Positions 2,119 through 27,229 of a stretch of 64,000 nt of DNA are shown piece after piece (position 1 is the first letter of the stretch; every line of letters begins with the position of its first letter). Origin of the DNA: Heptranchias perlo (taxonomy: Eukaryota). The notes below the pieces were generated by a model that did no database searches, was not told the origin of the DNA, and saw only the letters and a list, made by a program, of their open reading frames with translations. Position numbers and translations under genes: made by a program. Location: assembly GCF_035084215.1 (NCBI RefSeq), contig NC_090337.1, positions 62,930,001 through 62,994,000 of the forward strand. Direction: 5' to 3'.

Positions 2119-2283
2119 CTGCTAGAATGAAAACAAGCCCACCAGAAAGGGCAATCTTTCCTTTTACAGTCTCATTGGTGTTCCCGAGATTGGTGCATTT
2201 CAGGCCAAACAGAGCCATCAGTGTGGCGAAAACTCCCAGAAGGATGGAGATGATCATCAGAGCTCGACATGCTTGGATATAAG
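2119..2283 (-). CDS. Claudin (CLDN10/15 subfamily) coding exon 2, shared by both first exons; TM2 to TM3
   Basis: Acceptor tttccttgcag|CT at 2284/2283 and donor G|gtcagt at 2119/2118; 165 nt, phase 1-1. Translates (x)YIQACRALMIISILLGVFATLMALFGLKCTNLGNTNETVKGKIALSGGLVFILAG, with the YIQACRALM and G-x-KC motifs of CLDN10/15. Confidence 0.93.
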
Positions 2284-3932
2284 CTGCAAGGAAAGGAAAT
2301 ATTTTAGTGCTGGTACAAGAGTGAGCCAGGACTCGTGCAGAAACAGTCACCAGAACAGCTCCTCCACAGGAGCCATCTTAGTGTCTATGAACTGTTCTGA
2401 AAGTCAGTATAAGCAGCATTTTTTTTACTGTGCTCTAAGAGAATTTCCTTCCTCCCTTCTCAGTTACCAGATCCAGTCCAGATTGACGGGATCGAGGCCT
2501 GTCCTTTCTGCCGACCGTAAGAATCCTATGTGAAGAATTTGGATGATCTCAACCCACCTTCAAGTGGCCACCGCATTAATCTGCCACTTTAGTTGGCAAT
2601 CTCTCTCAGAGAAGCCACAGGGATGATTGATGTGGGAAGTGGAGGTGCCACATTGGGACTGCACCTCTGAGGCTGGATGAGAGGCACTGTGTTGGGCAGA
2701 ATATGGAGCATTTTACTCTGCATCTGGCTGTGTTCTGCCTGTCCTGGGAGCGCTTCATGCTGACATGAGCACTGGGAATTTCCTTTGGCAGTGGGGGGGT
2801 GTGGGCGGCGAGGTTCTGTAGATCGGTCGCCATAACTTTGGCGGGAATCCCACTTATCCTGAGTTTCCATCAATCTTCCGCTGAACGTATGACGGTAGAT
2901 CAGGAGAACCTGGCGTACATGCCAGAAATGGGAAAGTGTTCCATTCCTTGACACTTGATAAGCGCCAAAATAATCCACAAAAAAAATCAAAGTAAAGCTC
3001 TTTTTCCATCTGACTAATGAAACAGTGAGATTTTAAAAATGTTGGAGTACAATGATGAACTCTGCTGGATATAGGGTGAGCCTTGAAAGGGCAGGGTCTC
3101 CTGAGATCCACATTTTAAGATATCTCAGACTACGGTAATCTGGACACCCGAAGTCCAGCTGTGATGGGAAATATTCTAATTCGGGTCCTCAGGCTTCCCT
3201 TCAATGTCTCAGATCTTGAGCAGCTTGCATGAGGGGTGACTTCATGATCTCATACTCCCCGTGGGAAGCTAAACACAAAGGAGGAATGAATTGGAGGCAT
3301 CTCTACGTTGTAGCTCACATTCACCACACGTGCGTGTGAGCCCCCTCCCAGCTGGAAGTGTAGGACTGTGGGATCATCCCAGATAACCTTTCTTTAATCA
3401 ATGTTACAATAGTCATTATTCCTCGAAATGTTGCTCTTCCTAAACTCCAAATACGACTTCATATACTCTCTTTCTGTGAGCGTGTCTCTCTCTCCTTCTC
3501 TGTGTCTTTCTGTCTGTCTGTCTCTCTCTCCCTTTCTCCTCCTCCTCATAATCCACACTGTGAATCCAAGGTTGACTGAAGGCTAAGGGGAGACCGCTCC
3601 AAAGTGTATAAAATACAAAATGGTATAATTAAAATAAACCCAGAGTATTACTTCATGGTGAGTCAGATCATAGAAATTACAACCCAGAAACAGGCCGTTT
3701 GGCCCAACCAGTCTGTGATGCTGTTTTTCCTCCTGTAGTCCTAATTCCAAGTGCCTGCTCTTTTTCTCATATCCCCCTTTCCTTCAACCACCTTTCCAAA
3801 CCTATTGTTAAATGTTGACACGGTCTGTGCCTCAACTATTAACTCTGGCAGTGCAATCCACAACCCTCTGTAGGACTGGATGGCAGAAGTTTAAATGAGT
3901 ACAAAGTAGATTTAAAACATATTAAAAAGAAT

Positions 3933-4096
3933 GGGGATGAAATTGGTCTTGTGCGATATTGCAAAATGGGGGATAGCGAATCGGCTGCCCGTTTTACACT
4001 CCATCCAATTTTCTTTTCCCTCAAAGTCAATGTCAAGCTGGCTGCCGATTCGCTGTCTCCCATTTTGCGCTTTGGCCCAAGGTGAATTTCATCCCC
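3933..4096. mobile_element. Harbinger/PIF-like MITE
   Basis: TIRs ggggatgaaatt / aatttcatcccc, a palindromic interior and a 3-bp TSD AAT on both sides. Confidence 0.75.
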
Positions 4097-4784
4097 AATG
4101 TCTTTCCTCAAAGGGTAAGAAAAACTGGGAGTTGTAATGGAGTCAAGGATATTAGTGGTGTTAGTGCTCAAAATACAGTTGGACTCTAGACTGGGTGAGT
4201 AATGGATATGAGGTTCAATGGATCAAAGGATCTTTTCTCATCCTTGACTTTTTCTTATATTCTTGTGTCTCCTATACTGACTCATTTTTCCTAGGAACTC
4301 AAGATTGTGGAACTCCTTGCCTCTCTCAGTCTTCCCTTCCTCCTGTAGTCTAAAATCCAAGCTTGTTGTCACCTGACCACTGCTACTTGATTCGTCTCAT
4401 CTTCTTTTCTACTCTTTTCAACCTTGGTGATGTCTTCCACTTTGGGCCTTGGCCCTCCAATAATAATCATAGAATGGAACCTGCAGCAGACAAACTCATG
4501 ACAATGGAAGAGTCACAGTGCAAGTGCAGAAGTACGTCCGCAGATTTGTGTCAGTTGACTATCTCCTGTTTCTTGCAATCTGCTGGTGATTTATCATCAA
4601 TAACACTCACTATCTCAGCAACACTCAGTGTGTATTACAGTTGGACTCTGATATTAATTTATAATCAAAATTAAAATGTTTCCTGCTAAGCCTCATCCCA
4701 ACACATGCATATGTACACACACAAACATATACATACTCACACATGCACACACATATGTATTCACATATAATACACACACACATA

Positions 4785-5125
4785 TAGAATCATAGAATGT
4801 TACAGCACAGAAGGAGGCCATTCGGCCTATCGAGTCCGTGCCAGCTCTATGCATGAGCAATCCAGCTAGTCCTACTGCCCCGCCCTATCCCTGTAGCGCT
4901 GCACATTTTTTCGTTTCAAGTACTTATCCAGTTCCCTTTTGAAGGCCATGATTGAATCTAACTCCACCACCCCCTCGAGCAGTGCATTCCAGATCCTAAC
5001 CACTCTCTGTGTAAAAAAGTTTTTCCTCATATCATCTTTGGTTCTTTTGCCAATCACCTTAAATCTATGCCCTCTGGTTCTTGACCCTTCTGCTAATGGG
5101 AACAGTTTCTCTCTATCTACTCTAT
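4785..5125 (-). mobile_element. CR1 LINE 3' fragment
   Basis: C-terminal peptide DREKLFPLAEGSRTRGHRFKV...FFTQRVVRIWNAL and an (attctatg)n-type tail. Confidence 0.85.
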
Positions 5126-5686
5126 CTATCATATGCATAATACATACACACACAATTTTACAAAACCTCCCCATAAATGATGAGAAATCATAGTTGGTAG
5201 GCCAATAATATATTTTTTAACAAGTACATTTTGGAAGTAAGATACTGTCAGTGAAACAAGAGTAAACCATAAAGAAATCTGTTTCTTTTTTGGTGCTTTT
5301 TCCAGAACCATAAATTGTGATTAATGAAAAAATAAATAATTCAGTTCTCCAGAATTGACAAGAAAGGTGATTTTGTTTCCTTGTTCCATTCATAAATGGC
5401 ATTAAACTACATTCTTCTGACTATAAAAATTACCTTTGACCTACTCTCGGGGGAGGGGTTTAGATTATCCAATAAGGTTGCACTTATAGAATGATTGACA
5501 TTTATCAGCAACCGCCCCCCCCACTTCAAGTTAGTGAGCTTTCTTTCTCCTTTTTTGGTCATTTTCCTGTTAGCTTAACTTAGATAAACTATGACACCAA
5601 TCCTGGTGAGCAAATCTTTTGCCCTTCACCATGATCAAGCCTCAACTTTCAGAACATAGTTGCTTTCAGTGAAGGTTTGACTCGAT

Positions 5687-5874
5687 GGGGTGGATTTTCA
5701 GTTTGGCGCCCGAGCGTAAAACTGACGTAATCCCAGATCAGCTGTCTGTTGTAGAACCCCTTGATTTTCACTTCCATAGAAATTAATGGTGATGAAAACC
5801 GGGCGGTTTCTATAATGGGTGGACAATATGTAATGCCACTTCTTTGTTCTGGTGCCAAGTTGAAAATCTACCCC
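5687..5874. mobile_element. Harbinger/PIF-like MITE
   Basis: TIRs ggggtggattttca / tgaaaatctacccc; TSD is degenerate. Confidence 0.65.
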
Positions 5875-7829
5875 AACGTCTTCAATCTGTATCCTTCACA
5901 GACCCATAAAATCTGATTTTATATACCATGGGTGCCTCCTCGGCAGGCGATGTATGGCAAGGTCACAGAAAGGGTGTGTCACCCACCTACATACAAGTTA
6001 TTGTTTTCCAATCAGCTAGATACTCCAACTAATAAGGTCAAAATCTCATAATTCTGCTTGTGGGCGTCTGACCGAATCGAGTTTTCCGTTGGACTTCTGT
6101 GTCCACAACTAGCACTTCCTCTGGGGATAAGCTTCATTAATGGAGGAATTCCTGGTTGGGTAACTTCCTGGAACAACCAGGAAATATCCACACCCATAAT
6201 TTTCCCTAAAACTCCACCACTGGATAAACCCACAATGTAGCTAGTTCTGGGTATTCCAGTGGGTTTAAACACTGAATTTGGAATACTTTGGAGCTTGGGA
6301 CATGCATGGGATTAAACAAATCATAGAATCATGGAACCTTACAGCATAGAAGGAGGCCATTCAGCCCATCGTGCCTAGACTGGCTCTTTGAAGGAGCGAT
6401 CCAATTAGTCCCACTCTCCCCCATTCTTTCCCCATTGCCCAGCAAATTTTTCCTTTTCAAGTATATATCCAATTCCTCCTGCAATTTGGCATATTGGCAA
6501 ATATGATGAATGTCTATCAAATGTGTAGACGTTCTGATTGGGCTGGAGTTTTCTGACACTACAGGATAGTTTACAGAGGTGAAATGTACTGGTAAATTCA
6601 GTGATCCTCCACTCCCTGCATTGCGCCTTACTTGAAGGAAGCTGAGGTCAGGGATAGGGCTCCTCTTGCCCTAATCCTCTGAGCCAGGTTCCCTTTGAGC
6701 AAGGTTCAACACTTGGAGGATGGGATCATTGAATTTACCCTTTAGTTACCACTACAGCCAAGGCACGAACATTAAAATTGTCCACTAGTGATAAACAGGT
6801 CTAATAATGCTTGACGCTGTGTGTGTTACTGGTGGGCAAGAGAGTCATGGACATGTGATCCAGGTAAAATGCAGGCTAGATGACGTAATAGCTGTTTGAT
6901 ATGAAGATACACAGCTGGACTCCTGCCCTCAGGCGGGATGTGTCAAGATATGTTGTTACCCATAATAGGGTTCAGAGGCCATTTGTGGGAAATATCCATC
7001 TCATCCGTGGCACTCGGCAGACCTGCGTCCCTGGACCTCAAGTCACAACCTGCCAGTTCCGCCATACTGTTGCAACTGCTAAGTGCAAAGAGGTTTATCT
7101 GGCAGATGCCAAGCAAACCCAGAGCAGTACATACAATCCACAAAACAGCACAAGAACAGTCAAAGAAGGAAAGAGAAAAGACCTAATGGACCATGGACTA
7201 CCATCCAACTGCTTTTTGAATGCTCCAATGTCTTTGCCCCTACAACTACACCTGGCAGATTATTCCAAATATTTGTTACCCTTTGAGGAAAGAAATTTCT
7301 CAATACCAAAATTGCCAGTGATTTAAATTTATCTCCTCTGGTCCTACTAACCAAACCTAATTGAAGTAATATTCTGAGTTTACCTTATCTGTTCCATTTA
7401 ATATTTTATATACTTTGATGAGGTTTCCTCATAACCTTCTCTCTCAATGCTTGATCTTCTCTCAACTTTCTTCATCTTACTTAAACTTGGGATCATTCTT
7501 GTTGCTCCTCTCTGCACCCTCCCAAATGCATGTATATCCTTTTTGTAACATAATTAGAATTGTACAGAGGACTCCAAGTGCGCTCTGAGTGCTGCATTAT
7601 AAAACCTTGCTTATAATCTCTATGGACTTGTACCCTGCGGTCCGAGTTATATATCCTCATATTCTACTTGCTTTTTTAATGGATTCACCATCTTCTTTGA
7701 ACATTAAAATTTAGTGAAAAGAAAGGAGAATGCAGGCTGTCCTAATCAAACTAGAGAGTAGGACTTTTGATCAGCGAAGATCAAAGATGAACACTTAATG
7801 TGCAAGTTATTTTTATTGAAAGCAGATTA

Positions 7830-8225
7830 GAGCAGAGAAGGTTAAGGGGAGATTTAATAGAGGTGTTCAAAATTATGAAGGGTTTTGATAGAGTAAATAA
7901 GGGGAAACTGTTTCCACTGGCAGGAGGGTCGGTGACCAGAGGACACAGATTTATGGTAATCTGCAAAAGAACCTGAGGGGAGATGAGGAGAAATGTTTTT
8001 ATTCAGCGAGTTATTACGATCTGGAATGCACTGCCTGAAGGGGTGGTGGAAGCAGATTCAATAGTAACTTTCGAAAGGGAATTGGATAAATACTTGAAAA
8101 GGGAAAATTTGAGGACTATGCGGAAAGAGCAGGCGAGTGGGTCTAACTGGATGGCTCTTTCAAAGAGCCGGCACAGGCACGATGGGCCGATTGGCCTCCT
8201 TCTGTGCTGTAAGATTCAATGATTA
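7830..8225 (+). mobile_element. CR1 LINE 3' fragment
   Basis: RRLRGDLIEVFKIMKG...RRNVFIQRVITIWNALP followed by a CR1 3' UTR. Confidence 0.85.
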
Positions 8226-10201: not shown

Positions 10202-10418
10202 ACGATAGGCCGAGCATGGTCTCAAACATTCGGCAGTTGAAGACTCCAGTACTGTCCTGGGCACAGCTTTTCCACAGATTCTCATACAACCTGGAGCTTG
10301 TGATCACACTCCCAAAAACAGTGGAAATCTTCCAGTAATTGTTCGCCAATGTGGATCCAGTAAGCATCCATCCTGCCAGACCCATCAGGAACCCAGTAAC
10401 CTCCATAGCCGCTGCCAT
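10202..10418 (-). CDS. Claudin first coding exon, proximal (1b), claudin-15-like / claudin-10b-like; TM1 plus ECL1
   Basis: ATG at 10418; 72 codons plus 1 nt (217 nt); donor T|gtaggt. MAAAMEVTGFLMGLAGWMLTGSTLANNYWKISTVFGSVITSSRLYENLWKSCAQDSTGVFNCRMFETMLGLS has the claudin W...NLW-x2-C-x9-C signature. Joins exon 2 in frame (T+CT = Ser) across a 7918-nt intron. Confidence 0.92.
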
Positions 10419-10549
10419 AGTCAATCTTAGAAATACAGTCTTGTCCCACGGTGAAAGTTGCAAGAAAAAGATCTCCTCTCGTCACAAGGTTGAGCACTGG
10501 GAAACCTCTCGCTTCAAGTTCAGACACTCTTTACCTCTCTGTCGCTCTG

Positions 10550-10670
10550 TCTGCTTCATAAAGGCAACCCAACCTTCGCTCTCTTGCTCAAAGACCATAA
10601 AATGATAAGGTGGCACGTAATCGGCAATAACTGGGTGTGACCTTGGGTGGATCTATTAATTACTAAGGAA
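10550..10670 (-). promoter_or_regulatory. Candidate proximal promoter of claudin exon 1b
   Basis: Unique sequence upstream of the ATG with CCATAAA (CDX-like), TGATAAG (GATA), TGACCTTGG (NR5A/ERR type, 10638-10646) and ATTAATTACTAA (HNF1-like). Motif matches only. Confidence 0.35.
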
Positions 10671-11749
10671 TGGAGTGTCTCGGTCAAGATGGTATCGATC
10701 CTACCATTATAGTAAAAAATAATCAGCAAAAAAAAAGTGATGCAACTAGTGATTTATTTATACATACTTGTGTATAATACACAGACAGTTATTGATTGCA
10801 ATATGGTGAAATGAACTCTTTGCAGGAAGAACCTATATGAATGGTCATTCACCATGAGTGAAGCAATGAGCCATGGTCTAGCACAGTTTAAGCAATTGGT
10901 TGAAATGCTTAACTTTTACATGAGATCTTTGCCACTCTGCATAAATTTTGTGCTATGAAGAGAAACACAAATGTTGCTTATTGTTTCGATCACAGCCTCA
11001 TATTTTCGAGAGAATCTCTTTGTGCTTTTATTAGTTTCAGTCCTCTGGAACCCTTGAGTCAGACAGTTAAGTTCAGTTAATGTTTGACAAGATATTGATC
11101 TGCAGTATCAATACCGCACGGGGCTTTCAGCGAAACTCAACATTGAGAATGAGAACTACAGGGTGAGGAGATGATTCACTTTGGGAAAGGATCCATTATC
11201 CAAATGCATTATGAGTAAACTAAAGGATATATTTTGAACCTATATCTATGTTGCAATGTTTGGTAATCAGTAGATGTATTTTAAAAGTAGCGCAGAGAAA
11301 AGTTGGGAAAGACCTTATCAAAGATTTAATTACTGAGAAGTGTAATGTTATGGAAATTGGGTGGAGCAGTGGATTAGAACACTAGATTTTATTCTATGGG
11401 ATCTGGGTTTGAATCCAGGCTTGACCCAGTCCCAACTGAATGAAAAGTACACAAATTCGTAGTCTCTCTCACAAAGGACTTTACATTGGTTGACGCAGGT
11501 CATGGCAATGTCACCTTGTAGTAATGGATAGTTTGTCTGAAGTTAGGGTTAAGGCACGTTGTTGGGGAAAAGCAAAAGAAGTTTTACTTTATCTAACCTA
11601 GGAGTGCTTGATGCTGACACAGGATGGCAAAATGGGAAAAATGATATCATTCCCCAGGACTGACGTTCCTCAACTGGATGAACCCCAAATAATTTCCCCT
11701 TTAAAAAATAAATAAAAGAATAAAGAGGGAGCCCCCCCACCCCCACAAT

Positions 11750-11935
11750 GGGCCAGTGGGTGAATACATTGTATATTGTGGTACGGTGCCATAACAATCA
11801 GAAGGTCCCATGTTCAGCCTCTAGTCTGCTTGGAGTTTCCTGCTGATCTCAGCTGGAGCAGTCATGAGGGACGTTACAATTGCTCCTAGTGCCCCAGGCA
11901 AAAGAGTTCTTGATTGTTATCCACCAACCCCTTCC
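11750..11935 (+). mobile_element. Old tRNA-derived SINE (AmnSINE2-like), 5' part; continues at about 13650-13740 after the CR1 insertion
   Basis: gaaggtcccatgttca...gctgatctcagc...acaattg...tgattgttatcca resembles my recollection of AmnSINE2. Related decayed copies lie near 1600-1745, 38190-38470 and 48560-48800. Confidence 0.5.
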
Positions 11936-11939
11936 GGAA

Positions 11940-13618
11940 TATTTACAGTTGAAAAAGAGGATAGCATGCTGGAAATCCCAAGAAAATTTATATTGAATCA
12001 AGGACAGGGACTCGATAAAATTAACATAAGTAAAGCAACAGTATTGAAGAAAATAATAGCACTAAAGAGTGACAAATCCCCAGGACCAGATGGTTTCCAT
12101 TCCAGGGTTTTAAAGGAAGTAGGTAAGCACATTGCGGATGCCCTAACTATAATCTTTCAAAGTTCTCTAGATTCAGGAACTGTCCCTCTAGATTGGAAAA
12201 TTGCACATGTCACTCCGCTTTTTAAGAAAGGAGAGAGAGGGAAACCGGGGAATTATAGACCAGTTAGCCTAACATCTGTTGTGGGGAAAATGCTGGAGTC
12301 TATAATTAAGGATAGGGTGACTGAACACCTCGAGAATTTTCAGTTAATCAGAGAGAGCCAGCATGGATTTGTGAAACCTGATTGAATTTTTTGAAGAGGT
12401 GACTAAAGTAGTGGTCAGGGGAATGTCAATGGATGTTATTTATATGGACTTCCAGAAGGCATTTGATAAGGTCCCAATTAAGAGACTGTTAGCTAAGATA
12501 GAAGCCCATGGAATCGAGGGAAAAGTACGGACTTGGTTAGGAAGTTGGCTGAGCGAAAGGCGACAGAGAGTAGGGATAATGGGTAGGTACTGACATTGGC
12601 AGGATGTGACTAGTGGAGTCCCGCAGGGATCTGTCTTGGGGCCTCAATTATTCACAATATTTATTAACGACTTAGATAAAGGCATAGAAAGTCTCATATC
12701 TAAATTTGCCGATGACACAAAGATTGATGACATTGTAAGCAGTGTAGATGAAAACATAAAATTACAAAGCGATATTGATAGATTAGGTGAATGGGCAAAA
12801 CTGTGGCAAATGGAATTCAATGTAGATAAATGTGAGGTCATCCACTTTGGATCAAAAAAGGATAGAACAGGGTACTTTCTAAATGGTAAAAAGTTAAAAA
12901 CAGTGGATGTCCAAAGGGACTTAGGGGTTCAGGTACATAGATCATTGAAGTGTCATGAACAGGTGCAGAAAATAATCAAGAAGGCTAATGGAATGTTGGC
13001 CTTTATATCTGGAGGACTAGAGTACAAGGGGGCAGAAGTTATGCTGCAGCTATACAAAACCCTGGTTAGACCGCACCTGGAGTACTGTGAGCAGTTCTGG
13101 GCACCGCACCTTCGGAAGGACATATTGGCCTTGGAGGGAGTGCAGCGTAGGTTTACTAGAATGATACCCGGACTTCAAGGGTTAAGTTACGAGGAGAGAT
13201 TACACAAATTGGGGTTGTATTCTCTGAAGTTTCGAAGGTTAAGGGGTGATCTGATCGAAGTTTATAAGATATTAAGGGGAACAGATAGGGTGGATAGAGA
13301 CAAACTATTTCTGCTGGTTGGGGATTTTAGGAGTAGGAGGCACAGTCTAAAAATTAGAGCCAGACCTTTCAGGAGTGAGATTAGAAAACATTTCTACACA
13401 CAAAGGGTGGTAGAAGTTTGGAACTCTCTTCCGCAAACGGCAATTGATACTAGCTCAATTGCTAAATTTAAATCTGAGATAGATAGCTTTTTGGCAAGAT
13501 AAAGGTATTAAGGGATATGGGCCAAAGGCAGGTATATGGAGTTAGATCACAGATCAGCCATGATCTTATCAAATGGCGGAGCAGGCACAAGGGGCTGAAT
13601 GGCCTACTCCTGTTCCTA

Positions 13619-13620
<2 letters not shown>
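11940..13620 (+). mobile_element. CR1 LINE, 5'-truncated, disrupted ORF2 (reverse transcriptase)
   Basis: KSPGPDG, NYRPVSLTS, DFQKAFDKV, GVPQGSVLGP and FADD motifs over three ORF pieces, with a deletion near 12378 and a stop near 12591. The 3' UTR is followed by (TG)n. Confidence 0.93.
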
Positions 13621-13649
<29 letters not shown>

Positions 13650-14514
13650 ACATCGGGTGAGCTAGGATCAGGCTCAGTCAAACAGTCTGCTGACACAGAC
13701 TTCTGAGGCTCACTTAGATGAGGTACTGGAGGGTAACTGATGACTATGGAACTGGAGCCCAGCAAAAGTCCAACACCTTCAAGAAAGGGGAGAAGAAAAT
13801 CGGAAATAATAGAAGAAGGAGGTACTAATGGTGAGATTCCATCTTCAATACAGCTGTGATACCAAACTAAAGTGTACCAGTGAATGTACCAGATCAGTGG
13901 GGTTTGCCCTCTTGCTGCTAGACCGGTGATGTGGTCTGAGACTGCCAGCAAAAGTGAGCCCACTTCCCTCCTGGCCGTGCTTGTGTCAAGGCCTGCTGTG
14001 TTGCTAGAGTAGGAACATAGGAACAGCAGTAGCCATTCAACACATTGTTCCACCATTCAATTAGATCGTGGCTGATCTGTATCTTACCTCCATCTACCCA
14101 CCTTAGTTCCATAACCCTTAATACTCTTGCCTAAAAAAAAATCTATCAATCTCAGTTTTGAAATTTTCAATTGGCCAATTGGATTTCTCAGTATGCCTTT
14201 AAAGGTGTTCCACTTGTCCTCCACTGAAGTGTTGTTGAACAACTCTCCCCTCCTACCCCTAAAATCAGTTTGCTTACACAATTCCCTCATTCCCTTGAGG
14301 TTAGCCCATTTATAATTATATGTACCTGGATTCCAGCCTTCAGTATTTCTGAATCCCAGATTGCTATCCCCCGAGGGTGCCACAAATTCCAATTCCTGTG
14401 TGCTAACTGGGTCACTTGCTATTACCAAGTCAAGATGTGCAATGCTTCTTATGGCTTCCCTGATGCACTGGGCCATGAATAGATTCAGAAGCGTTCACTT
14501 TTCCTTCAGGATGA

Positions 14515-15065
14515 AGATATAGGAACATAGGAACAGGAGTAGACCATTGAGCCCCTCGAGCCTTTACCGCCATTCAATTAGATCACAGCTGATATGTATC
14601 TTAACTCCATTTACCCGCCTTGGTTCCATAACCCTTAATACCCTTGCCTAACAAAAATCTATCTGTCTCAATTTTTAAAGTTTCAATTGACCCCAAGCCT
14701 CAACATCTTTTTAGGGAAGAGAGTTCCAGATTTCCACTACCCTTTCCGTGAAGAAGTGCTTTCTGACATCACCCCTGAAGAGCCTAGCTCTAATTTTAAG
14801 TTTATGCCCCCTTGTTATGGACTCTCCCACCAGAGGAGATAGTTTTTCTCTATCAAATCCTGTAATCTACCTTAAACATCTCAATTAGATCACCCCTTAA
14901 TCTTCCATATTCAAGGGAATACAGATCTTGTCTATGCAACCTGTCCTCATAATTTAACACTTATAGCCCCGGTATCATTCTGGTGAATCTGCACTTCACC
15001 TCCTCCAAGGCCAATATATCCATCCTGAGATGCGGTGTCCAGGACTGAATGCAGTACTCCAGACA
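14515..15065 (-). mobile_element. CR1 LINE 3' fragment
   Basis: Reverse-complement CR1 C-terminus and the ctcctgttcctatgttcctat tail. Confidence 0.8.
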
Positions 15066-16349
15066 GGTAGGAATTCAAGTTGGTAAAGTTAATGCACAAT
15101 TGCTTCATGGCTCAGTGCATTTTGGAGGTTACAAGGAGAAGTGCTTGGTAAGAGCAAGTGACCCGGACAGCACACAGGAAATGGAACTCATGGCATCCTT
15201 TGGAGTTAGCAAATGCAGAATGATTTTGTTTGACGTGCTCTGAGATTCTGAAATGCTTAAGACCAGAAGCCAAGTGCATATAATTTTAAAGGAGCCAATG
15301 AAGGAAATGAGGGAATCGCTTAAGTAAATTGATTTTGGGAGCAGGAGAGGTGGGTCGTTCAGGAGCTCATTGCAAACGTAAAATTTGCAGATGATATCAA
15401 ACTAAGAGGAGTTGAACCCGAGGAGTCAGCTCAGGAGCTACAACATGAGTTAGATCTAAGTGGATAGAACAATGGCAGATGAAATTTAGTAGAGAGAAGT
15501 GTAAAGTACTGCACAAAGGAGGGAAAGTGGGTGAGGTAGGCATTCGATGGATAGTGTTGAAACAGCTAAGGGTGAAGCTAAAGGAGATCCAGGGGTTTTA
15601 GTAGACTCGACGTTCAATATGTCCGACCGCCGCAATCAACAAAGCAAATAGAATACTGCACTATGCAGCCAACACAGTCGGACACAATCAAAGGAAATCA
15701 TATGAAACTGCCGAGACGGCAACATTTGGAGACGCTGAGTTTCTATCAGAAATTGGAGTCCCCTATGTTTCTCTGAATTTCCTATTTGAAATCCCGGGTA
15801 TGTGTGAGAGGAGTTAGTGTACTGCTGACGCTCCATTCACTGTCCCCAGTGATCTGCCTTGCCTCGACAGTCCCCCGATCCCCACTGAGCTCAATCCAAA
15901 TCAGCAGCTTATGATCCCAACCCAAATCTACAGCTGCTTTTCCAATAGCTCCCACTGCATGTTGTTTTGGGAGCTCTGCATGGTCACAGAGGACATCATT
16001 AAATGTGACCTAATGAGGCCCCTCTAGTTCCAAACACCACCATGTACAGTAACGTATTAATTTAGTAGACCTGCTGTTTCATTCTAACTAATCCCTTTGA
16101 ACAATTTACATGTTCCCATTCACTGGCTCGCTGCATCTTCTTCTGATACCCAGTGAGGCTTATTTGCGATAACCAGCAATTAGTTACTAGGGAAAACAAA
16201 ATGAATTTGCATTTTAAGAGAAATGTGGCCGTATTCAATTAAATGTCTGCAGGGAGAAAGGAATAGAAGGATATGTTGATAGGGTGAGATGAAGTAAAGT
16301 GGGAGGAGGCTCATGTGGAGCATAAACACCGGCATACACCGGCATAGAC

Positions 16350-16695
16350 TCTGTGGGGAAAGGCAACCGTTTAGAGCCTTCCCGCCATTGTATACCGAGG
16401 GGCTGCAATCAGGGAAAAACCCCCTCGGGCAGAATGTAAAATTCAAAATTGATGTAATGTACCCGCAATAAATCTGCAATGAATCTGTAATGAATCACCT
16501 GTATTGATTGTGATGCAATGAGGCACCCTAGAGTGTCATGAACTGTAATGATGTCCAATGTGTTTCATTGAACTGTACTTGATGTAACCTGCAAATTGCA
16601 TAATCGATCTTGTGTATGTTTGGAATGTGATATGAGAACTGTATTGTATGAACTGCTGCAAATTTTATGAATAAAGTATATTTTTTGAAAAAAAA
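16350..16695 (+). mobile_element. Tx1-clade LINE 3' end with poly(A)
   Basis: Matches the reverse complement of 51508-51860; AATAAA and an A tail; flanked by the direct repeat ataaacaccggcata. Confidence 0.85.
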
Positions 16696-17134
16696 ATAAA
16701 CACCGGCATAGACCCATTGGGCCGATTGGCCTGTTTCGATGCTGTAAAGTCTATGTCATTGTTTGGGTGTGGACAGCAGCTTTTGAATTTCTGTACATAA
16801 TCCAGAAGATATCAAAAGGAAATTAATTTTTTCTATGTTGGGACTTCATTATTTTAAATTTTTTTTCCCATAAATCCATAACTTATTAAATTCAATCTTT
16901 ATATTGTGACTGCAGATGTGGTTCATGTTTTGCACCATCAAAAATAAAGCATGGAGAAAGTGCACGTAGACCTGTGGGGACAGGAGAACTTGGCTTCACT
17001 GTTTTCTGCAAATGGGCAATCTATTGGCACCCACCGGCAAGAATCATAAAATGCCCGCTTGGGTGACCAATGCCCATGGAAATGCCCAATCCGGTCCCGG
17101 TTTCAGGAGCGCATCACAGGTGAACATAAACAAT

Positions 17135-17400
17135 CCCATGCACTGTTTCGAAGAAGAGCGGGGGAGCTCCCCCCAGTGTCCTGGCCAATATTTACCCCAC
17201 AACCAACATGATTAAAACAGATTATCTGGGCCATTATCTCAGTGCTGTTTGTGGGCCCTTGCTGTGCGCAAATTAGCTGCCGCATTTCCTACATTACAAC
17301 AGTGACTACACTTCAAAAAGCACTTCATTGCCTGTAAAGCACTTTGCGACGTCCTGAGGTTGTGAAAGGCTCGATATAAAAGTCTTTCTTTTTCTTTTCT
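17135..17400 (+). mobile_element. DeuSINE, 5'-truncated
   Basis: Homologous to 1335-1590. Confidence 0.7.
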
Positions 17401-18049
17401 TTACGACCAGCGCCTTCTAGACCCCATTTTTAAAGGGATCTAAGTCGCAATATTTTGAAATTTAACAATGTGGACATCTCTGAAAGTGTGTCAGAAAGTG
17501 TATGTGTCCAGTCCTGGTCATGGAGACACAAGGGAGACAGTCAAGCCCTGGAGGCAATTCAGAAAAGAGGCACAAGATTAATTTCTAATCTAGAAGGCTG
17601 AGTTATGAGGAAAGAAACTTGGACTTTTGAGCCTTGAAAGGAGGCAATTGATAGCCGTACGGAGCAGTGGGGGCTGAGAAACTGGCATCTTACGAGCCAC
17701 GTGTGATTCTCCTGTGACTAAAGTGCAACTTTTTGAATGCTTTATTAAAATGCCCTGCCCACATCACAGCTCCTATGTGAGAGATACAAAGGATATGATC
17801 AACCATAACAAAACAGGCAGCCTTCCTTCTATTAGTCTAACTAGTTACTGCTGAGTGAGCAGTAAGACACCAGTCATTGCTGAAAATTCTCATTTCAGGC
17901 TTCAGCTTTCTGAAAAGTAAAGCTTTTCTCCAGTGCTACACAAATTTTTTCTCCAGTAAACAGCACTTCTTAACCAACCTCCCTACCCAGAAACTAATGT
18001 TTGATTAAATGGATTCATTAAAAAAATATTAATGCTTTAATTGTAAGAT

Positions 18050-18750
18050 TTTTAATGCAAAGTAGTGTGAAGTGATGCATTTTGGAAGGAAGAATGAGGA
18101 GAGGCAAAATAAACTAAATGGTACAGTTTTAAAGGGGGTGCAGGAACAGAGAGACCCGGGGGTTCACATACAAAAATCTTTGAAGGTGGCAGTTCAAGTT
18201 GATAAGACTGTTAAAAAAGCATGTAGGATCCTTGGCTTTATAAAGGTCATAAAGTACAAAAGCAAGGAAGTTATGCTAAACCTTTATAAATCACTGATTC
18301 GGCCACAGCTGGAGTATTGTGTCCAATTTTGGGCACCACATTTTGGAAGGATGTAATGATTGGAGAGGGTGCAGAGGAGATTTACTAGAATGATAGTTAA
18401 GGTTAAGGGGAGATTTAATAGAAGTGGTCAAAATTATAACGGGTTTTGGGAGAGCACATAGGGAAAAATTGTTTCCATTGGCAGGAGGGTCAGTAACCAG
18501 AGGCCACAGATTTAAGATAAGTGTCAAAAGAACCAGAGGGAAGATGAGGAGAAATTTTTTTTATGCAGCGAGTTGTTATGATCTGGAATGCACTGCCTGA
18601 CACGATGGTGGAAGTAAATTCAATACTAACTTTGAAAAGGGAATTGGATAAATACTTGAAAAGGAAAAATTTGCAAGACTATGGGGAAAGAGCAGGGGAG
18701 TGGGACTAATTGGTTAGCTCTTTCAAAGAGCCAGCACATGCGCGATGGGC
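18050..18750 (+). mobile_element. CR1 LINE 3' fragment; tail resumes at about 20628-20660
   Basis: LYKSLIRPQLEYCVQFWAPH motif; the 3' UTR is split by a second LINE. Confidence 0.85.
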
Positions 18751-20628
18751 TTTTTAAAAATTTGTTCACGGGATGTGGGCGTCACTGGCGAGGCCGGCAT
18801 TTATTGCCCATCCCTAATTTCCCTTGAGAAGGTGGTGGTGAGCCGCCTTCTTGAACTGCTGCAGTCCGTGTGGTGAAGGTTCTCCCACAGTGCTGTTAGG
18901 AAGGGAGTTCCAAGATTTTGACCCAGCGACGATGAAGGAACGGCGATATATTTCCAAGTCAGGATAGTTTGTGACTTGGAGGGGAACGTGCAGGTGGTGT
19001 TGTTCCCATGTACCTGCTGCCCTTGTCCTTCTAGGTGGTAGAGGTCGCGGGTTTGGGAGGTGCTGTTGAAGAAGCCTTGGCGAGTTGCTGCAGTGCATCC
19101 TGTAGATGGTACACACTGTAGCCACAGTGCACGGTGGTGAAGGGAGTGAATGTTTAGGGTGGTGGATGGGGTGACAATCAAGCGGGCTGCTTTGTCCAGG
19201 ATGGTGTCGAGCTTCTTGAGTGTTGTTGGAGCTGCACTCATCCATGCAAGTGGAGAGTATTCCATCACACTCCTGACTTGTGCCTTGTAGATGGTGGAAA
19301 GGCTTTGGGGAGTCAGGAGGTGAGTGAATCGCCACAGAATACCCAAACACTGACCTGCTCTTGTAGCCACAGTATTTATATGGCTGGTCCAGTTAAGTTT
19401 CTGGTCAATGGTGACCCCCAGGATGTTGATGGTGGGGGATTCGGCGATGGTAATGCCATTGAATGTCAAGGGGAGGTGGTTAGACTCTCTCTTGTTGGAG
19501 ATGGTCATTGCCTGGCACTTGTCTGGGGCGAATGTTGCTTGCCACATATCAGCCCAAGCCTGGATGTTGTCCAGGTCTTGCTGCATGCGGGCACGGACTG
19601 CTTCATTATCTGAGGGGTTGTGAATGGAACTGAACACTGTGCAATCATCAGCGAAATCCCCATTACTGACCTTATGATGGAGGGAAGGTCATTGATGAAG
19701 CAGCTGAAGATGGTTGGGCCTGGGACACTGCCCTGAGGAACTCCTGCAGCAATGCCCTGGGGCTGAGATGATTGGCCTCCAACAACCACTACCATCTTCC
19801 TTTGTGCTGGGTATGACTCCAGCCACTGGAGAGTTTTCCCCCTGATTCCCATTGACTTCAATTTTACTAGGGCTGCTTGGTGCCACACTCGGTCAAATGC
19901 TGCCTTGATGTCAAGGGCAGTCACTCTCACCTCACCTCTGGAATTCAGCTCTTTTGTCCATGTTTGGACCAAGGCTGCAATGAAGTCTGGAGCCGAGTGG
20001 TCCTGGCAGAACCCAAACTGAGCATCGGTGAGCAGGTTATTGGTGAGTAAGTGCCGCTTGATAGCACTGTCGACGACACCTTCCATCACTTTGCTGATGA
20101 TTGAGAGTAGACTGATGGGGCGGTAATTGGCCGGATTGGATTTGTCCTGCTTTTTGTGGAAAGGACATACCTGGGCAATTTTCCACATTGTCGAGTGGAT
20201 GCCAGTGTTGTAGCTGTAATGGAACAGTTTGGCTAGAGGCACGGCTAGTTCTGGAGCACAAGTCTTCAGCACTACAGCCAGGATGCTGTCGGGCCCATAG
20301 CCTTTGCTGTATCCAGTGCACTCAGCCGTTTCTTGATATCACGTGGAGCGAATCGAATTGGCTGAAGACTGGCTTCTGTGATGGTGGGGATATCGGGAGG
20401 AGGCCGAGATGGATCAGCCACTCGGCACGTCTGGCTGAAGATGGTTGCAAATGCTTCAGCCTTGTCTTTTGCATTCACATGCTGGACTCCGCCATCTTTG
20501 AGAATGGGGATGTTTACAGACCCTCCTCTTCCCGTTAGTTGTTTCATTGTCCACCACCATTCACGACTGGATGTGGCAGGATTGCAGGACTTTGATATGA
20601 TCCGTTGGTTGTGGAATCGCTTAGCTCT
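18751..20628 (-). mobile_element. CR1/L2-group LINE (family B), 5'-truncated and frameshifted
   Basis: RT motifs NYRPISLLS, DIKAAFDRV and GVPQGSV; highly similar to 45075-47403. Confidence 0.92.
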
Positions 20629-21271
20629 GGCTGAATGGCCTTCTGTGCTGTAAAGTTCTAAGATATGGACAGCCAAGGCAAACACACTATGCTGCAGGTT
20701 GAGAGCGCTACCAAACGAGCCAAACTGACACGATGAGCGAGAGGGAGGTTTGGTAACTGGACACATTGCATTAAAAATCAAGGGGCAGAATCTTCGTGGT
20801 GCTTCTCCCGATCTCATGGAATGGAAGATTGGCGGAAATCTGGAGAAACCGCGTAAATGGATATTGAGTCCAGGGTTTCTGCCTGGTATTTCTTAGGGTC
20901 GATCCCACCCTCAAATCTCAAATTTGTAGGATCTTTCTGCCCTGCCTGGCTCAGGACCACATTAAATATATATATATATATATATATAAATATAAGAGTG
21001 GTAGATGAAGTGACAATCTTAGAATGAAATGCGCCTCTCAGTAATTTATTGCAATTTAATTTCCAATAAAGGTCTCGAGAATAGAAAGTGAAATGAAAGA
21101 GGAAAAAAAGGGCAGGCCATGAATCAGATGCAATGGCCTCAGATCCTGAATTTCTGATTGCGCTCCCATCTGATTGAGCTCTACCCGAAGAGCGCTAAAG
21201 CAGAACATTAGCCCCATTATTTCACTTTGCATGACTAAGTAGCATTCAATTCTTGGCAGTGTAAATAATTT

Positions 21272-22588
21272 CTCATTTATATTACAGTGCTGGGATTGTG
21301 ATCAGGGTCCCTCATTTATATTACAGTGCTGGGATTGAGATCAGAGTCCCTCATTTATATTACAGTGCTGGGATTGAGATCAGGGTCCCTCATTTATATT
21401 ACAGTGCTGGGATTGAGATCAGAGTCCCTCATTTATATTACAGTGCTGGGATTGAGATCAGGGTCCCTCATTTATATTACAGTGCTGGGATTGAGATCAG
21501 AGTCCCTCATTTATATTACAGTGCTGGGATTGTGATCAGGGTCCCTCATTTACATTACAGTGCTGGGATTGAGATCAGAGTCCCTCATTTATATTACAGT
21601 GCTGGGATTGAGATCAGAGTCCCTCATTTATATTACAGTGCTGGGATTGAGATCAGAGTCCCTCATTTATATTACAGTGCTGGGATTGAGATCAGAGTCC
21701 CTCATTTATATTACAGTGCTGGGATTGAGATCAGAGTCCCTCATTTATATTACAGTGCTGGGATTGAGATCAGAGTCCCTCATTTATATTACAGTGCTGG
21801 GATTGAGATCAGAGTCCCTCATTTATATTACAGTGCTGGGATTGAGATCAGAGTCCCTCATTTATATTACAGTGCTGGGATTGAGATCAGAGTCCCTCAT
21901 TTATATTACAGTGCTGGGATTGAGATCAGAGTCCCTCATTTATATTACAGTGCTGGGATTGAGATCAGAGTCCCTCATTTATATTACAGTGCTGGGATTG
22001 AGATCAGAGTCCCTCATTTATATTACAGTGCTGGGATTGAGATCAGAGTCCCTCATTTATATTACAGTGGTGGGATTGAGATCAGGGTCCCTCATTTATA
22101 TTACAGTGCTGGGATTGAGATCAGAGTCCCTCATTTATATTACAGTGCTGGGATTGAGATCAGAGTCCCTCATTTATATTACAGTGCTGGGATTGAGATC
22201 AGAGTCCCTCATTTATATTACAGTGCTGGGATTGAGATCAGAGTCCCTCATTTATATTACAGTGCTGGGATTGAGATCAGAGTCCCTCATTTATATTACA
22301 GTGCTGGGATTGAGATCAGGGTCCCTCATTTATATTACAGTGCTGGGATTGAGATCAGAGTCCCTCATTTATATTACAGTGCTGGGATTGAGATCAGGGT
22401 CCCTCATTTATATTACAGTGCTGGGATTGAGATCAGGGTCCCTCATTTATATTACAGTGCTGGGATTGAGATCAGAGTCCCTCATTTATATTACAGTGCT
22501 GGGATTGAGATCAGAGTCCCTCATTTATATTACAGTGCTGGGATTGAGATCAGGGTCCCTCATTTATATTACAGTGCTGGGATTGAGA
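21272..22588. repeat. 39-bp minisatellite, about 34 near-identical units
   Basis: Unit ctcatttatattacagtgctgggattgagatcagagtcc, with rare variants (gggtcc, gtgatc). Confidence 0.97.
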
Positions 22589-22949
22589 GCAGTGCTGGGT
22601 AAAGTAAATTGATTGGGCGAGGCTGTTCAACAACATTTCAGCAGAAGCAAAATGGATCAACTTTAAAGGTATAATGCTGAGCATGTGGGATAAATACATT
22701 CCCAAAACCAACAAACTCAGACCAAACAAATGTGACCCTAAATGGATCAGTAAATAAACTAAAAGTATGAAAAGGAGGGAAAATGATATGTAGAAACTCT
22801 GGAAGGGAAAAGGAGAAGGGGCTCATTGGGAGGAGTACAAGAAGTTGCAGAAACATGTTAAAAAGGTGATCATTGAGGCATAGAAAAATCTGGGGAAAAA
22901 ACAAAACATCTGAAGATGAACATAACGGTTACAAATTCTCTCAGTACCA

Positions 22950-23580
22950 CAACAGCAAGAGGGCAGTCAGAGAAGAGGTGAAAACTTCAAAAAAAATTGA
23001 AACTGAGCGCAAGCACAAAGTGGTAAATATTCTGAATGACAACTTCCTCTAAGTATTCACCAGTGAACATTTGCAACATGCCCTCTCCAGACAAAATATC
23101 CCAAGTAAAATTAATGACTTCATTATAAATGTGATGGAGGTGTTAGACATACTAAATTAGCTCAATACAAATAAATCCCCAGGGATAGATCGTATCGGTC
23201 CCCGAGTGCTGAGAGATACTCAGGAGGAGATTTGTGAACCACTGACAATCATTATCAGGGAGCCATTGAACATTGGGGAGGTACTAAAAAATTAGAAACA
23301 GGCCAATGGCATCTATACTCAAAAAAGGTGACCAAACTGACACAGGCAACTTTGGACTTACTTCCATTCCATGTAAATTAATGGAATTGATTATCAGGAG
23401 TAACTTCAGGACCACCTGTGCAATAAGAATCTAGTAAACAGCAGCGAACATGGATTCAAGAGGGATAGATCCTGTCTGGCCAGTCTCCCTGACTTTGTTG
23501 AGGAAGTGACAACCCAAGTGGACTATGGTGACATGGTGTATCTTGACTTCCAACGGGCTTCTGACAAAGTTTCACATGAA
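22950..23580 (+). mobile_element. Old degenerate CR1 ORF2 fragment
   Basis: Decayed KSPG, HGF and VYLDFQ..DKVSH-coding segments. Confidence 0.65.
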
Positions 23581-24227
23581 AATCAATAATTAAACTCAAA
23601 TCTGTACAGATTTAGAATGGATCTTATCCATGTATTTTTTGTTAGTCTCTGCTTAACTATTTTGTCTAGTTTTTTGTCCTTCGATCTTTGGTGGATCATT
23701 TCTCTTTGCATCTGACTAATTAACGTAAAAATTAATTCAGTGAGAATTAAATTAATCAGTTTTTGTGAAAAGCTGAGGAATAAACAATCCAAGTATTAAA
23801 CAAAACGAGGTGAAGTTGTCTCCTGAAACGTGTGGCATTGGATTTAATGGCAGCTGGATTAATGACCTATAGAATGAGTGCCTCATTCTTCCTCAAAAAA
23901 GGATTGCCCTCTGGGGGTAACAGATTATTTTGTGTTCCATTTCTTTGAGAACTAATCTATAGAATTCCTAACTCAGTGTCACTCCCCGTGCTGCTAAGAA
24001 CATGTCTCGTCCCTTCCCTCACCACTGACAAACACCAGGAACCCACCAGTGAGCCAACCCCCACATTCCGCTTTTGTTGAACCTCTGGTTCTCCCTTCCT
24101 CAGTGACTCCAGACAAAAGGATCCAAATGCTACCAGGCCCTAGTTGCCCCACTGCAGTCCTTCCAACCTCCAGGATCCAGTCTCTAGTTCTGCATAAAAC
24201 CCAGGACCATCTCCTGATGTTACCGTA

Positions 24228-25697
24228 GAAACAAAGAAACATAGAAAATAGGAGCAAGAGTAGGCCATTCGGCCCTTTGGGTCTGGTCCGCAATTCAAAA
24301 TGATCATGGCTGATCGTCTAACTCAGTACCCTGTTCCTGTTTTTTCCCCACATCCCTTGATCCCTTTAGCATTAAGAAATATACCTATCTTCTTCTTGAA
24401 TACATCAAATGACTTGGCCTCCACTGCCTTCTGTGGTAAAGAATTCCACAGGTTCACCACCCTCTGAGTGAAGAAATTTCTCCTCATCTCGGTTCTAAAT
24501 GGCATAACCCGTATCCTGAGACTGTGACCCCTAGTTCTGGACTCTCCAGCCATCGGGAACATCCTCCCTGCATCTAGTCTGTCTAGTCCTGTTAGAATTT
24601 TATATGTTTCAATGAGATCACCTCTCATTCTTCTAAATTCTAGTGAATATAGCCTAGTCGACCCAATCTCTCCTCATACGTCAATCCTGCCATCCCAGGA
24701 ATCAGTCTGGTAAACCTTCGTTGCACTCCCTCCATGGCAAGGACATCCTTCCTTGGATAAGGAGAACAAAACTGCACACAATACTCCAGATGTGGTCTCA
24801 CCAAGGCCCTGTATAACTGCAGTAAGACATCCCTGCTCCTGTATTATTAAACTAGAAAGAGTGCAGAAAATATTTTCTAGGATGCTACCGGGACTTGATG
24901 GTTTGACTTATAGGGAGAGGTTAGATCGACTGGGACTTTTTTCCCTGGAGAGTAGGAGGTTAAGGGGTGATCTTATAGAAGTCTATAAAATAATGAGGGG
25001 CATAGATAAGGTAGATAGTCAAAATCTTTTCCCAAAGGTAGGGGAGTCTATAACGAGGGGACATAGATTCAAGGTGAGAGGGGAGAGATACAAAAGGGTC
25101 CAGAGGGGCAATTTTTTCACTCAAAGGGTGGTGAGTGTCTGGAACGAGCTGCCAGAGGCAGTAGTAGAGGCGGGTACAATTTTGTCTTTTAAAAAGCATT
25201 TGGACAGTTACATGGGTAAGATGGGTATAGAGGGATATGGGCCAAGTGCAGGCAATTGGGACTAGCTTAGTGGTATAAACTGGGCGACATGGACATGTTG
25301 GGCCAAAGGGCCTGTTTCCATGTTGTAAACTTCTATACTCAAATCCTCTTGCAATGGAGGCCAACATACCATTCGCCTTCCTAATTGCTTGCTGCACCTG
25401 AATGCTCGCTTTCAGCGACTGGTGTACAAGGACACCCAGGTCTCGTTGCACCTCTCCTTTTTCCAATCTATCACCATTCAAATAATAATCTGCCTTTCTG
25501 TTTTTACAACCAAAGTGGATAACCTCACATTTATTCACGTTATACTACATCTGCCATGTTCTTGCCCACTCACCCAACTTGTCTAAATCACATTGGAGCC
25601 TCTTTGCATCGTCCTCACAGCTCACATTCCACCCCAGCTTGTGTCATCTGCAAACTTGGAAATGTTACATTTAGTTCCCTCATCCAAATCATTGATT
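24228..25697 (-). mobile_element. CR1 LINE 3' part, interrupted by an opposite-strand CR1
   Basis: KCEVIHFG...ANGMLA and MRGDLIETYKIL...FFTQRVVNLWNSLP; the host sequence ctcctgta|ctcaaatcc is split at about 24844/25335. Confidence 0.88.
24844..25335 (+). mobile_element. CR1 LINE 3' fragment nested in a CR1
   Basis: LERVQKIFSRMLPGL...FFTQRVVSVWNELP with its own 3' UTR. Confidence 0.88.
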
Positions 25698-26798
25698 ACC
25701 AAAGTGAGGAAGCATTTCTACTGCCACTAAACACCACCCAGGACTACTACATAGCAGAGGCTAAAGGTTCTCACCATTTGCTACTGGACATTGGTGTTAA
25801 TTGTATGGTTTGTATCAATTGGGGTTAATTGTATTCAGGTGGTGGGTGTCGATTGGAGACTCTCTTGGATCCTTTTATTGGAGAGCTTAGCTAGGGTGTG
25901 GGGTGTGTGCAAGAGGAAACTCTGAGAATATAGGCTCAGAAGCAACTCAAGACCAGGCTCTAGTGTTCTTTCCTTCACCACATGGCTATCCAGTTTTAAC
26001 AGTTGGGTGGGGGCAGAATTTCCAACTACTCTTTTAGCCAAAAATGACTCTGTCCCATTGCAATGGGGGTCACTACCATGATCGGGCGAGTGCCCAAACC
26101 AGTTGTGGTACAATAGGAGAGTCCGCAAAGTAGAGCTCACAGAATCGCAGAATGATTAAAGTACCTTACCCCATCCCCCACCCCTGTTTCATCGGAATTT
26201 GCCGTGATTGCTGTGAAGAGGCAGAAAGCCGACAGAGCCAAGGTTCTGCTTCAGCCGAGGTCCCTCCACAGCCATTGGACCTGAAGTCTACTCCAAGCAG
26301 AAGCTGAAGTTCTAGACACAGTTATTTGCCTCCAATTGGTGCATCTTGCATACCACCTTGCCACTCACTTATGGTTTTCACAGAATATTGGACAGAGAGG
26401 AAGAATTCGCTCCTGCAAGCGCTGGTGAAAATCCCCAGACCACCATTTAATAATTTAAGAGTTTGATTTACTTAGTCACTGTAAATCAGTGGCCCTATTG
26501 TTGCAAAACAATGGCCGTAGAATTTCCTTGGAGCATCTCCCGCTCGGCTGCCGTAACTTTGCTTGAAGTGTAGCAGAAACTCCGTTTACGACCGTGAGCG
26601 GGGTTACCGACCAGACCTCCGGTGGAGTTATGATGGCGGAGCGAGAGCAGCTCTGAGGAAATTCCCAGCCGGTCTGTCCTCACGAAGAACAACACCATCG
26701 GAGGTTTGCTAGGATACGGGAAAAGTTTGGTTAGAAAATTCCCCTCAAACTTTTTTTAATTACCGATGACAGGAAATTCAGGAGAAGCTGCCACTTAC

Positions 26799-27018
26799 GG
26801 TGTAAGGAAAGCAAAGACAGGTAGTAGGTGCACTGTACTACCCACATAGCATTGGCGGCACATGTCTTCCAGAGCCCATCGTAGATCCAGCTGGCAGTAA
26901 TTAGTGTGGTAGATGTGCTTGAGATCCTCCACTCATTAGACATCATGGAAACAGAGGCAAGGACTAGTCCCAGGAAGGCCAAAAGCAGAGAGAAAATCTG
27001 AATGGCTGTCACTCTCAT
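26799..27018 (-). CDS. Claudin first coding exon, distal alternative (1a), claudin-10a-like; TM1 plus ECL1
   Basis: ATG at 27018; 73 codons plus 1 nt (220 nt); consensus donor C|gtaagt. MRVTAIQIFSLLLAFLGLVLASVSMMSNEWRISSTSTTLITASWIYDGLWKTCAANAMWVVQCTYYLSLLSLH resembles CLDN10a (SNEWKV..VITATWVYQGLWMNCAGNALG). Joins exon 2 in frame (C+CT = Pro). Confidence 0.85.
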
Positions 27019-27229
27019 CCCTTCCTATCACTGAATAAATAGGGGCTGGTGTTGACCAAGAGAACCTGAAGGTTCTTATCTGCAGAGACAATAACGGAGT
27101 GAGAGTTAGTTGTCTGTTTCAATTAAAATGTCCACCACACAGTTTGGGAAATAAGCTCCTTGTTAAAGGGACATAGGGTTGGTTGGATCGGGAGGCTGCA
27201 AAGTAATGAAATGTGCAAATAAGGCAATG

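Follow-up and report, generated by a model that had tools for sequence, protein, structure and literature searches.

The window considered here, a 64,000-nucleotide (nt) stretch of the 3.25-Gb genome of the shark Heptranchias perlo (C13:62930001-62994000), holds on its minus strand one claudin gene with two alternative first exons, each encoding a first transmembrane helix (TM1) and first extracellular loop (ECL1) in frame with one shared body. We refer to the part encoded by either first exon as the head and to the part encoded by exons 2–5 as the tail. Taken as a whole, and with a probability that we put at about 0.7, this is a cldn15lb-like gene whose two in-frame first exons likely form a switch between a cation pore and a poorly selective junction, and whose heads are of deep origin. 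It is a further member of the two-headed design familiar from CLDN10, the textbook case of one gene giving rise to two opposite ion pores, with a likely different functional switch.

Both heads begin with an ATG and end at a phase-1 GT donor. The distal exon 1a (coding part 26799..27018; 220 nt, 73 codons plus 1 nt; donor GTAAGT at 26799) encodes a head that trees assign to the a type, related to CLDN10a, while the proximal exon 1b (coding part 10202..10418; 217 nt, 72 codons plus 1 nt; donor GTAGGT at 10202) encodes a b-type head related to CLDN15 and CLDN10b. Either is in frame with the shared exon 2 (2119..2283; 165 nt, with a polypyrimidine tract and CAG acceptor), which specifies TM2, a loop and the start of TM3. 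Re-derived coordinates, donors and junction peptides reproduce those of the initial annotation, made from the sequence alone, which had described two ATG-bearing phase-1 claudin first exons sharing a single exon 2. The start of intron 2 occupies positions 1..2118, and the remaining shared exons lie beyond the first base of the window, 1.3–7.0 kb past its edge: exon 3 at C13:62928667-62928748 (82 nt), exon 4 at C13:62924524-62924628 (105 nt) and the coding part of exon 5, with the stop codon and a terminal YV motif, at C13:62922993-62923074, all on the minus strand. Joined to exons 2–5, the distal exon gives letter for letter the 217-residue RefSeq protein XP_067851691.1, named claudin-15-like isoform X1, whose N-terminus it encodes, and the proximal exon gives an open 216-residue protein. 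The hallmarks of the claudin family (four TM helices, the W-x-LW-C-C signature of ECL1, the beta sheet and the C-terminal YV) are all in place, and the predicted fold of the a isoform is that of a whole claudin, with a mean predicted local distance difference test score (pLDDT) of 78 and a root-mean-square deviation of 1.8 Å to mouse claudin-15 (4P79).

The interval between the heads (10524..26798, minus strand) contains repeats and likely the proximal promoter region. The earlier statement that it lacks exons 2–5 held up in a tblastn search of 10419-26798, which is free of N, with ten claudin tails: the best score was 23.5 bits and so at the level of 20 shuffles (19.6–26.9 bits), real exons 2–4 scoring 30–61 bits with the tails of paralogues. 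Head profiles likewise found no claudin heads beyond these two in 264 kb around the gene. The alternative of two separate genes in the window is ruled out by the empty interval together with the presence of only two heads.

Transcript data were available as Logan contigs from three runs (X1, X2 and X3) of one sample, whose RNA status is a guess. Of the two splice junctions foreseen by the initial annotation, the proximal one, 10202^2283, is contained in an X1 contig of 1642 nt that skips 7918 nt with CT..AC ends, and contig cover of 10202-10523 in this run delineates a probable 5' untranslated stretch of exon 1b (10419..10523, minus strand). As to the distal head, exon 1a is covered by a mismatch-free 312-nt contig of run X1 on 26851-27162, the intron and the DNA further upstream being uncovered, so that 27019..27162 (minus strand) is a likely 5' untranslated part, although contigs cannot give the true start. 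Its junction 26799^2283, which spans 24.5 kb and exceeds the 20-kb limit for alignment in one piece, was not observed, and no loose contig end was seen. Runs X2 and X3 have no contig on exon 2 or exon 1a and are evidence in neither direction. RefSeq models the distal junction here and in other sharks. The distal head is likely spliced to exon 2 from a promoter of its own, and we infer separate promoters with tissue-specific choice of head.

The same arrangement recurs across jawed vertebrates. Among 117 aligned proteins (of 122, after removal of five outside 190–240 residues), 25 pairs combine a tail identity of 97% or more with a head identity below 60%. Of these, 19 are within one named species (a chimaera, three sharks, paddlefish, lungfish, two newts and 11 frogs), one is on Logan contigs, one comes from Amia, and four are across species. 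Two Logan contigs, 969 and 995 nt long, encode the full-length a-type proteins P0068 and P0030, P0068 forming a pair with b-type P0090; if the gene is split into several exons as it is here, contigs this short represent spliced RNA, and the junction of an a-head to exon 2 therefore exists in relatives. Sturgeons, teleosts, turtles, lizards, crocodilians, birds and platypus have a-type or b-type forms too, entered in databases as claudin-1-, -7-, -10-, -15- and -19-like. Proteins named claudin 15-like b include a-type heads as isoform X1 (sturgeon P0021, opah P0254) and a b-type head as isoform X2 (zebrafish P0091). The best 120 of the 498 matches listed include no therian, and the gene has presumably been lost in therians. 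The gene is conserved, and both isoforms are already in RefSeq as automatic models for many species. Some single models fuse an a-head to a b-head (15-like P0009, P0042, P0063 and P0247, and CLDN10 P0133), and fused models display the exon order a then b in sturgeon, bonefish, flycatcher, piranha and croaker.

Pore-lining residues point to different properties for the two heads. Alignment of the b-head to mouse claudin-15 needs no gaps (E 1.6e-19), and E46, D55, N61 and R63 are retained, in keeping with the first description of the proximal exon as CLDN15-like with D55; this is the central aspartate characteristic of the cation pores of CLDN15 and CLDN10b (D55/D56). D55 forms the CLDN15 filter, and its substitution by asparagine lowered the simulated Na/Cl ratio from 4.2 to 0.95 along with the conductance, and raised resistance in cells (PMC6028499). 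At this position the a-head carries N56. The anion pore of CLDN10a is lined by R33, H60, R62 and K69 (PMC10970694), for which the a-head has T35, Q62, T64 and S71; moreover, it places an acid, D47, at the position of CLDN10a Q45, and the net charge of its ECL1 is 0. Since all four basic residues are missing, the original proposal of a 10a-type anion pore or switch for the distal head is not supported. The four residues are mostly kept in 107 CLDN10a heads (R33 in 106, H60 in 101, R62 in 107, K or R69 in 82), a set gathered with a CLDN10a query so that its likeness is inflated. Among 79 a-type 15-like heads, R or K33 and H60 occur once each, K or R69 and D or E55 never, and D or E45 in 77. As a separate observation, 11 of 38 b-type heads, mostly from frogs but also from zebrafish (P0043, P0047, P0055 and P0091 among them), have alanine at the D55 filter position, which suggests that cation selectivity has been lost in those lineages.

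In CLDN10 the choice of promoter sets TM1 and ECL1 (PMC6862131), and promoter choice in the 15-like gene would do the same. Use of the b-head would give a CLDN15-type cation pore passing sodium, and use of the a-head a poorly selective and probably tighter junction rather than an anion pore of the CLDN10a type. Judged from these residues, the choice of head likely toggles between the two states, because the a-head lacks both D55 and the basic residues of CLDN10a. This suggests that a-heads are not bound to the role of anion pore and that the one here comes near a naturally occurring D55N variant of CLDN15.

The identity of the gene emerges from its neighborhood and its tail. A gene with MORN, ankyrin and MYND domains (C13:62780506-62885075, minus strand), which we take from its domain order to be ANKMY1, begins some 38 kb downstream from the claudin gene. 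A 240-residue SOX-B2 gene, presumably SOX14, lies 0.38 Mb away, a CLDN18-like gene (a name we assume from its sequence) at a distance of 1.0 Mb on this contig, and a second DZIP1-family gene at 1.3 Mb. CLDN10 itself is found on C6, with a DZIP1-family domain 0.44 Mb away and a SOX-B2 gene at 85.12 Mb, and the C13 neighborhood is paralogous to this CLDN10 block. Since CLDN10 resides on C6 next to the other gene of the DZIP1 family, and the neighbor here is the MORN-ankyrin-MYND gene rather than DZIP1, orthology to CLDN10 is rejected, and the initial assignment to a CLDN15-like paralogue stands; a clade uniting the 15-like b isoforms of cartilaginous fishes with CLDN10b is likewise rejected (p value of the approximately unbiased test, p-AU, 0.03). 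Of the syntenic markers proposed at the outset, FIS1 sits on an unplaced contig and leaves synteny with CLDN15 uninformative. The tail is 65% identical to that of shark CLDN15 and 50–54% to shark CLDN10 tails, and in the tail tree with four outgroups clusters with shark and bat CLDN15 tails (97/89), a teleost CLDN15-type row (P0253) falling outside. Orthology to CLDN15 is excluded as well, as it is instead the gene on C38 that matches CLDN15 of other sharks and mammals: its exon 1 is 83% identical to epaulette-shark P0093, and its C-terminal end is common to P0093 and bat claudin-15 (P0249). This shark CLDN15 has one b-type head, with no a-type head in its introns or in 248 kb upstream (interrupted by one 200-N gap). 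It extends over C38:2368240-2432844 with a 64-kb first intron, and a second copy of its exon 1, probably from the other haplotype, is present on unplaced contig C1561. In three tail trees the epaulette-shark CLDN15 tail (P0093) stands beside the tail of the present gene on a long branch (99/77, 100/90, 99/91), be it an artefact or an old exchange of sequence. In the tail trees the 15-like group is not one clade, although its monophyly is not rejected (p-AU 0.19). The gene is likely the shark orthologue of teleost cldn15lb, whose named proteins bear the same a-type and b-type heads and group with these proteins, an assignment drawn from weakly supported trees and from names rather than from fish synteny. 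A role in bile-duct morphogenesis has been described for zebrafish cldn15lb (review PMC3875606).

Exon-1 trees (72 and 35 rows, 70 columns) indicate that the heads are older than the gene. All b-type heads, namely 15-like b, CLDN10b, CLDN15 and hagfish, form one clade (100/95 with 72 rows, 100/99 with 35 rows), and grouping the two heads of a gene is rejected both for the present gene (p-AU 0.002, 35 rows) and for CLDN10 (p-AU 3.5e-17); a single clade of all a-type heads is not rejected (p-AU 0.38). A local exon duplication is dismissed by the value of 0.002, exons 1a and 1b being identical at 104 of 214 aligned nt. Within this genome the CLDN10a head finds exon 1a, by a narrow margin, as its best match other than itself, and the reverse holds as well, corroborating the early recognition of the distal head as 10a-type. 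Cyclostomes possess a-type proteins in lamprey and hagfish and b-type in hagfish, and one lamprey a-type head groups with CLDN10a (96/96). From the single clade of b-heads, the rejection of own-gene head pairs and the cyclostome types it follows on phylogenetic grounds that the a/b heads predate the split of CLDN10, CLDN15 and the 15-like gene, as had been surmised, and probably also that of jawed and jawless vertebrates. Genome duplication would then have produced CLDN10, CLDN15 and this 15-like gene, of which CLDN10 and the 15-like gene would have kept both heads and CLDN15 the b-head only.

Several observations weigh against this overall reading. On the side of transcription, junction 26799^2283 was not observed in run X1, where the contig on exon 1a ends 52 nt before the donor and no loose end was found; transcript support comes from one run of one study, as contigs of guessed RNA status, and most of the protein pairs are automatic gene models in which read support is not visible. 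As for the protein, a tryptophan, W59 (TGG, window positions 26842-26844), replaces a glycine found in 75 of 79 a-type heads, and shark a-heads are 60–84% identical to that of Heptranchias perlo vs 94–100% for shark and ray b-heads relative to horn shark; this faster drift together with W59 may reflect relaxed constraint on the shark a-head. The b-head lacks the acids D36 of CLDN10b and D/E64 of CLDN15, its ECL1 carries a net charge of +1, and D55 is absent from 13 of 38 b-type heads, while 63 of 79 a-type 15-like heads have K or R at the R62 position, so that tetrapod a-heads could be weakly anion-preferring. The trees contribute doubts as well: the clade of 15-like proteins with zebrafish cldn15lb in the best b-isoform tree has a support of only 53/72, the best exon-1 trees do not unite the a-type heads in one clade, and descent from tandem genes is not rejected (p-AU 0.07–0.17, four-outgroup tail tree). 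The observations on the a-head suggest two alternatives for its present state. It might form a CLDN10a-like anion pore, making the gene a full cation/anion switch, as its a lineage shared with CLDN10a, the retained equivalents of W42 and N54, the absence of D55 and the basic residue of the 63 relatives would allow; the loss in this shark of all four residues that CLDN10a heads mostly keep, D47 in place of Q45 and a neutral ECL1 render this unlikely. Or exon 1a could be a transcribed but decaying orphan no longer spliced to exon 2 in this shark, in line with W59 and with the contig that stops short of the donor. This we consider highly improbable, given an open frame with ATG, a consensus GTAAGT donor and both ECL1 cysteines, an identity of 81–84% to the a-heads of horn shark and sawshark, and the RefSeq models of the junction here and in other sharks. 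Codon 59 itself may represent an allele, a change in the lineage or an assembly error, the contig of run X1 ending 7 nt before it.

A third alternative leaves the reading of the present-day gene as a two-headed cldn15lb-like claudin unchanged and concerns its ancestor, which may have consisted of two tandem whole genes (a then b). Exactly this is seen in shark CLDN10, as opposed to the single two-headed mammalian CLDN10: at C6:84196000-84365500, cldn10a and cldn10b are two tandem whole genes with tails 63% identical, the a-head having its own exons 2–5 (84.365–84.312 Mb) and the b-head its own set (84.263–84.196 Mb, exons 1–4 mapped). In chimaera proteins P0126 and P0128 the a-head has the same private tail, and one model joins an a-head to the b tail. 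Under such an ancestry, exons 2–5 of the a gene would have been lost twice, in the 15-like gene before the jawed-vertebrate radiation and in CLDN10 of bony vertebrates. Three tail trees bear on the matter (the first without 11 rows of aberrant or partial tails, the second without six rows and with one outgroup, the third with four outgroups). Clades of a-gene and b-gene tails are not rejected in the third (p-AU 0.17 and 0.07–0.14) or, with p-AU 0.28 and 0.085, in the second, and none of the eight cyclostome proteins of the trees belongs to an a/b pair sharing a tail. Nevertheless, the cyclostome rows say little on shared tails, there being no lamprey b-type among the named rows; one test of the b tails is borderline rejected (p-AU 0.046, second tree); all three trees put the tail of shark 10a with those of CLDN10 (95/72, 87/85, 91/85), and the best-rooted tree joins it to the shark 10b tail (76/93), as a later duplication predicts. 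Because all three trees place the shark 10a tail with CLDN10, we favor by judgement, at somewhat better than even odds, a two-headed ancestor with later gain of a tail in CLDN10 of cartilaginous fishes, which would likely have re-duplicated it to give separate 10a and 10b genes, and we regard the tandem ancestor with double tail loss as possible but doubtful. The ancestral two-head design suggested by the initial annotation stands insofar as the heads are older than the paralogues. The separate cldn10a and cldn10b genes of sharks make the origin of alternative first exons, by loss or by gain of a tail, directly testable.

Mammalian CLDN10 is the closest known system, with two first exons that exchange TM1 and ECL1 in front of common exons 2–5 (PMC6862131), heads that are homologous a-to-a and b-to-b, and a block containing SOX-B2 and DZIP1-family genes; the differences lie in the separate locus, the tail, and an a-head devoid of the basic anion-pore residues. 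CLDN15 resembles the present gene in its E46- and D55-bearing b-type head and its tail, and differs in having that single head and its own locus on C38. In CLDN18 (18.1/18.2) the alternative first exons are near-copies of each other, stemming from a separate duplication, and its sequence is distant. The literature searched, which did not extend to supplements and subscription phylogenies, yielded no paper that describes a pair of first exons in cldn15-like genes, so that a prior description is possible; the two heads go unmentioned in the accessible parts of PMC3875606, PMC8351317, PMC10970694, PMC3875640, PMC6862131, PMC6028499, PMC13328031 and PMC8215749. A 2013 review remarked on the lack of any knowledge about tight-junction proteins in sharks (PMC3875606). 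What is new is limited by the two-headed design being known and the isoforms being RefSeq models already, but a second two-headed gene found from chimaeras to platypus dates the heads to before the jawed vertebrates, and gene-level measurement of cldn15-like expression in osmoregulation studies would pool two likely different pores. In its broadest form, on which the odds seem evenly balanced, the proposal is that the first vertebrates had paired a/b heads, that two of three duplicates kept both with the a-head tuned differently (an anion pore in CLDN10; in the 15-like gene, a head that seals or lacks the filter), that sharks split CLDN10 into two whole genes, and that most non-therian vertebrates carry an overlooked promoter-level on/off switch for the paracellular passage of sodium. 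If true, this switch has been hidden under wrong names (claudin-7-, -19- and -15-like), and its isoforms would have been lumped together wherever expression in epithelia of fishes, amphibians and birds was measured per gene.

As for other features of the region, no host-gene domain emerged in the 137 kb upstream of exon 1a from Pfam searches with 148 out of 549 non-repeat frames, which have little power for small exons. A stretch resembling a long terminal repeat (LTR) retroelement, at about 63.060–63.065 Mb of C13, contains gag-like frames with a CCHC knuckle, a pol-like region that is broken and one frame resembling env, and has no Pfam match. Between the two heads, at window positions 21265-22609, a 39-nt unit is repeated head to tail about 34 times and is open in two plus-strand frames as a 13-residue repeat.

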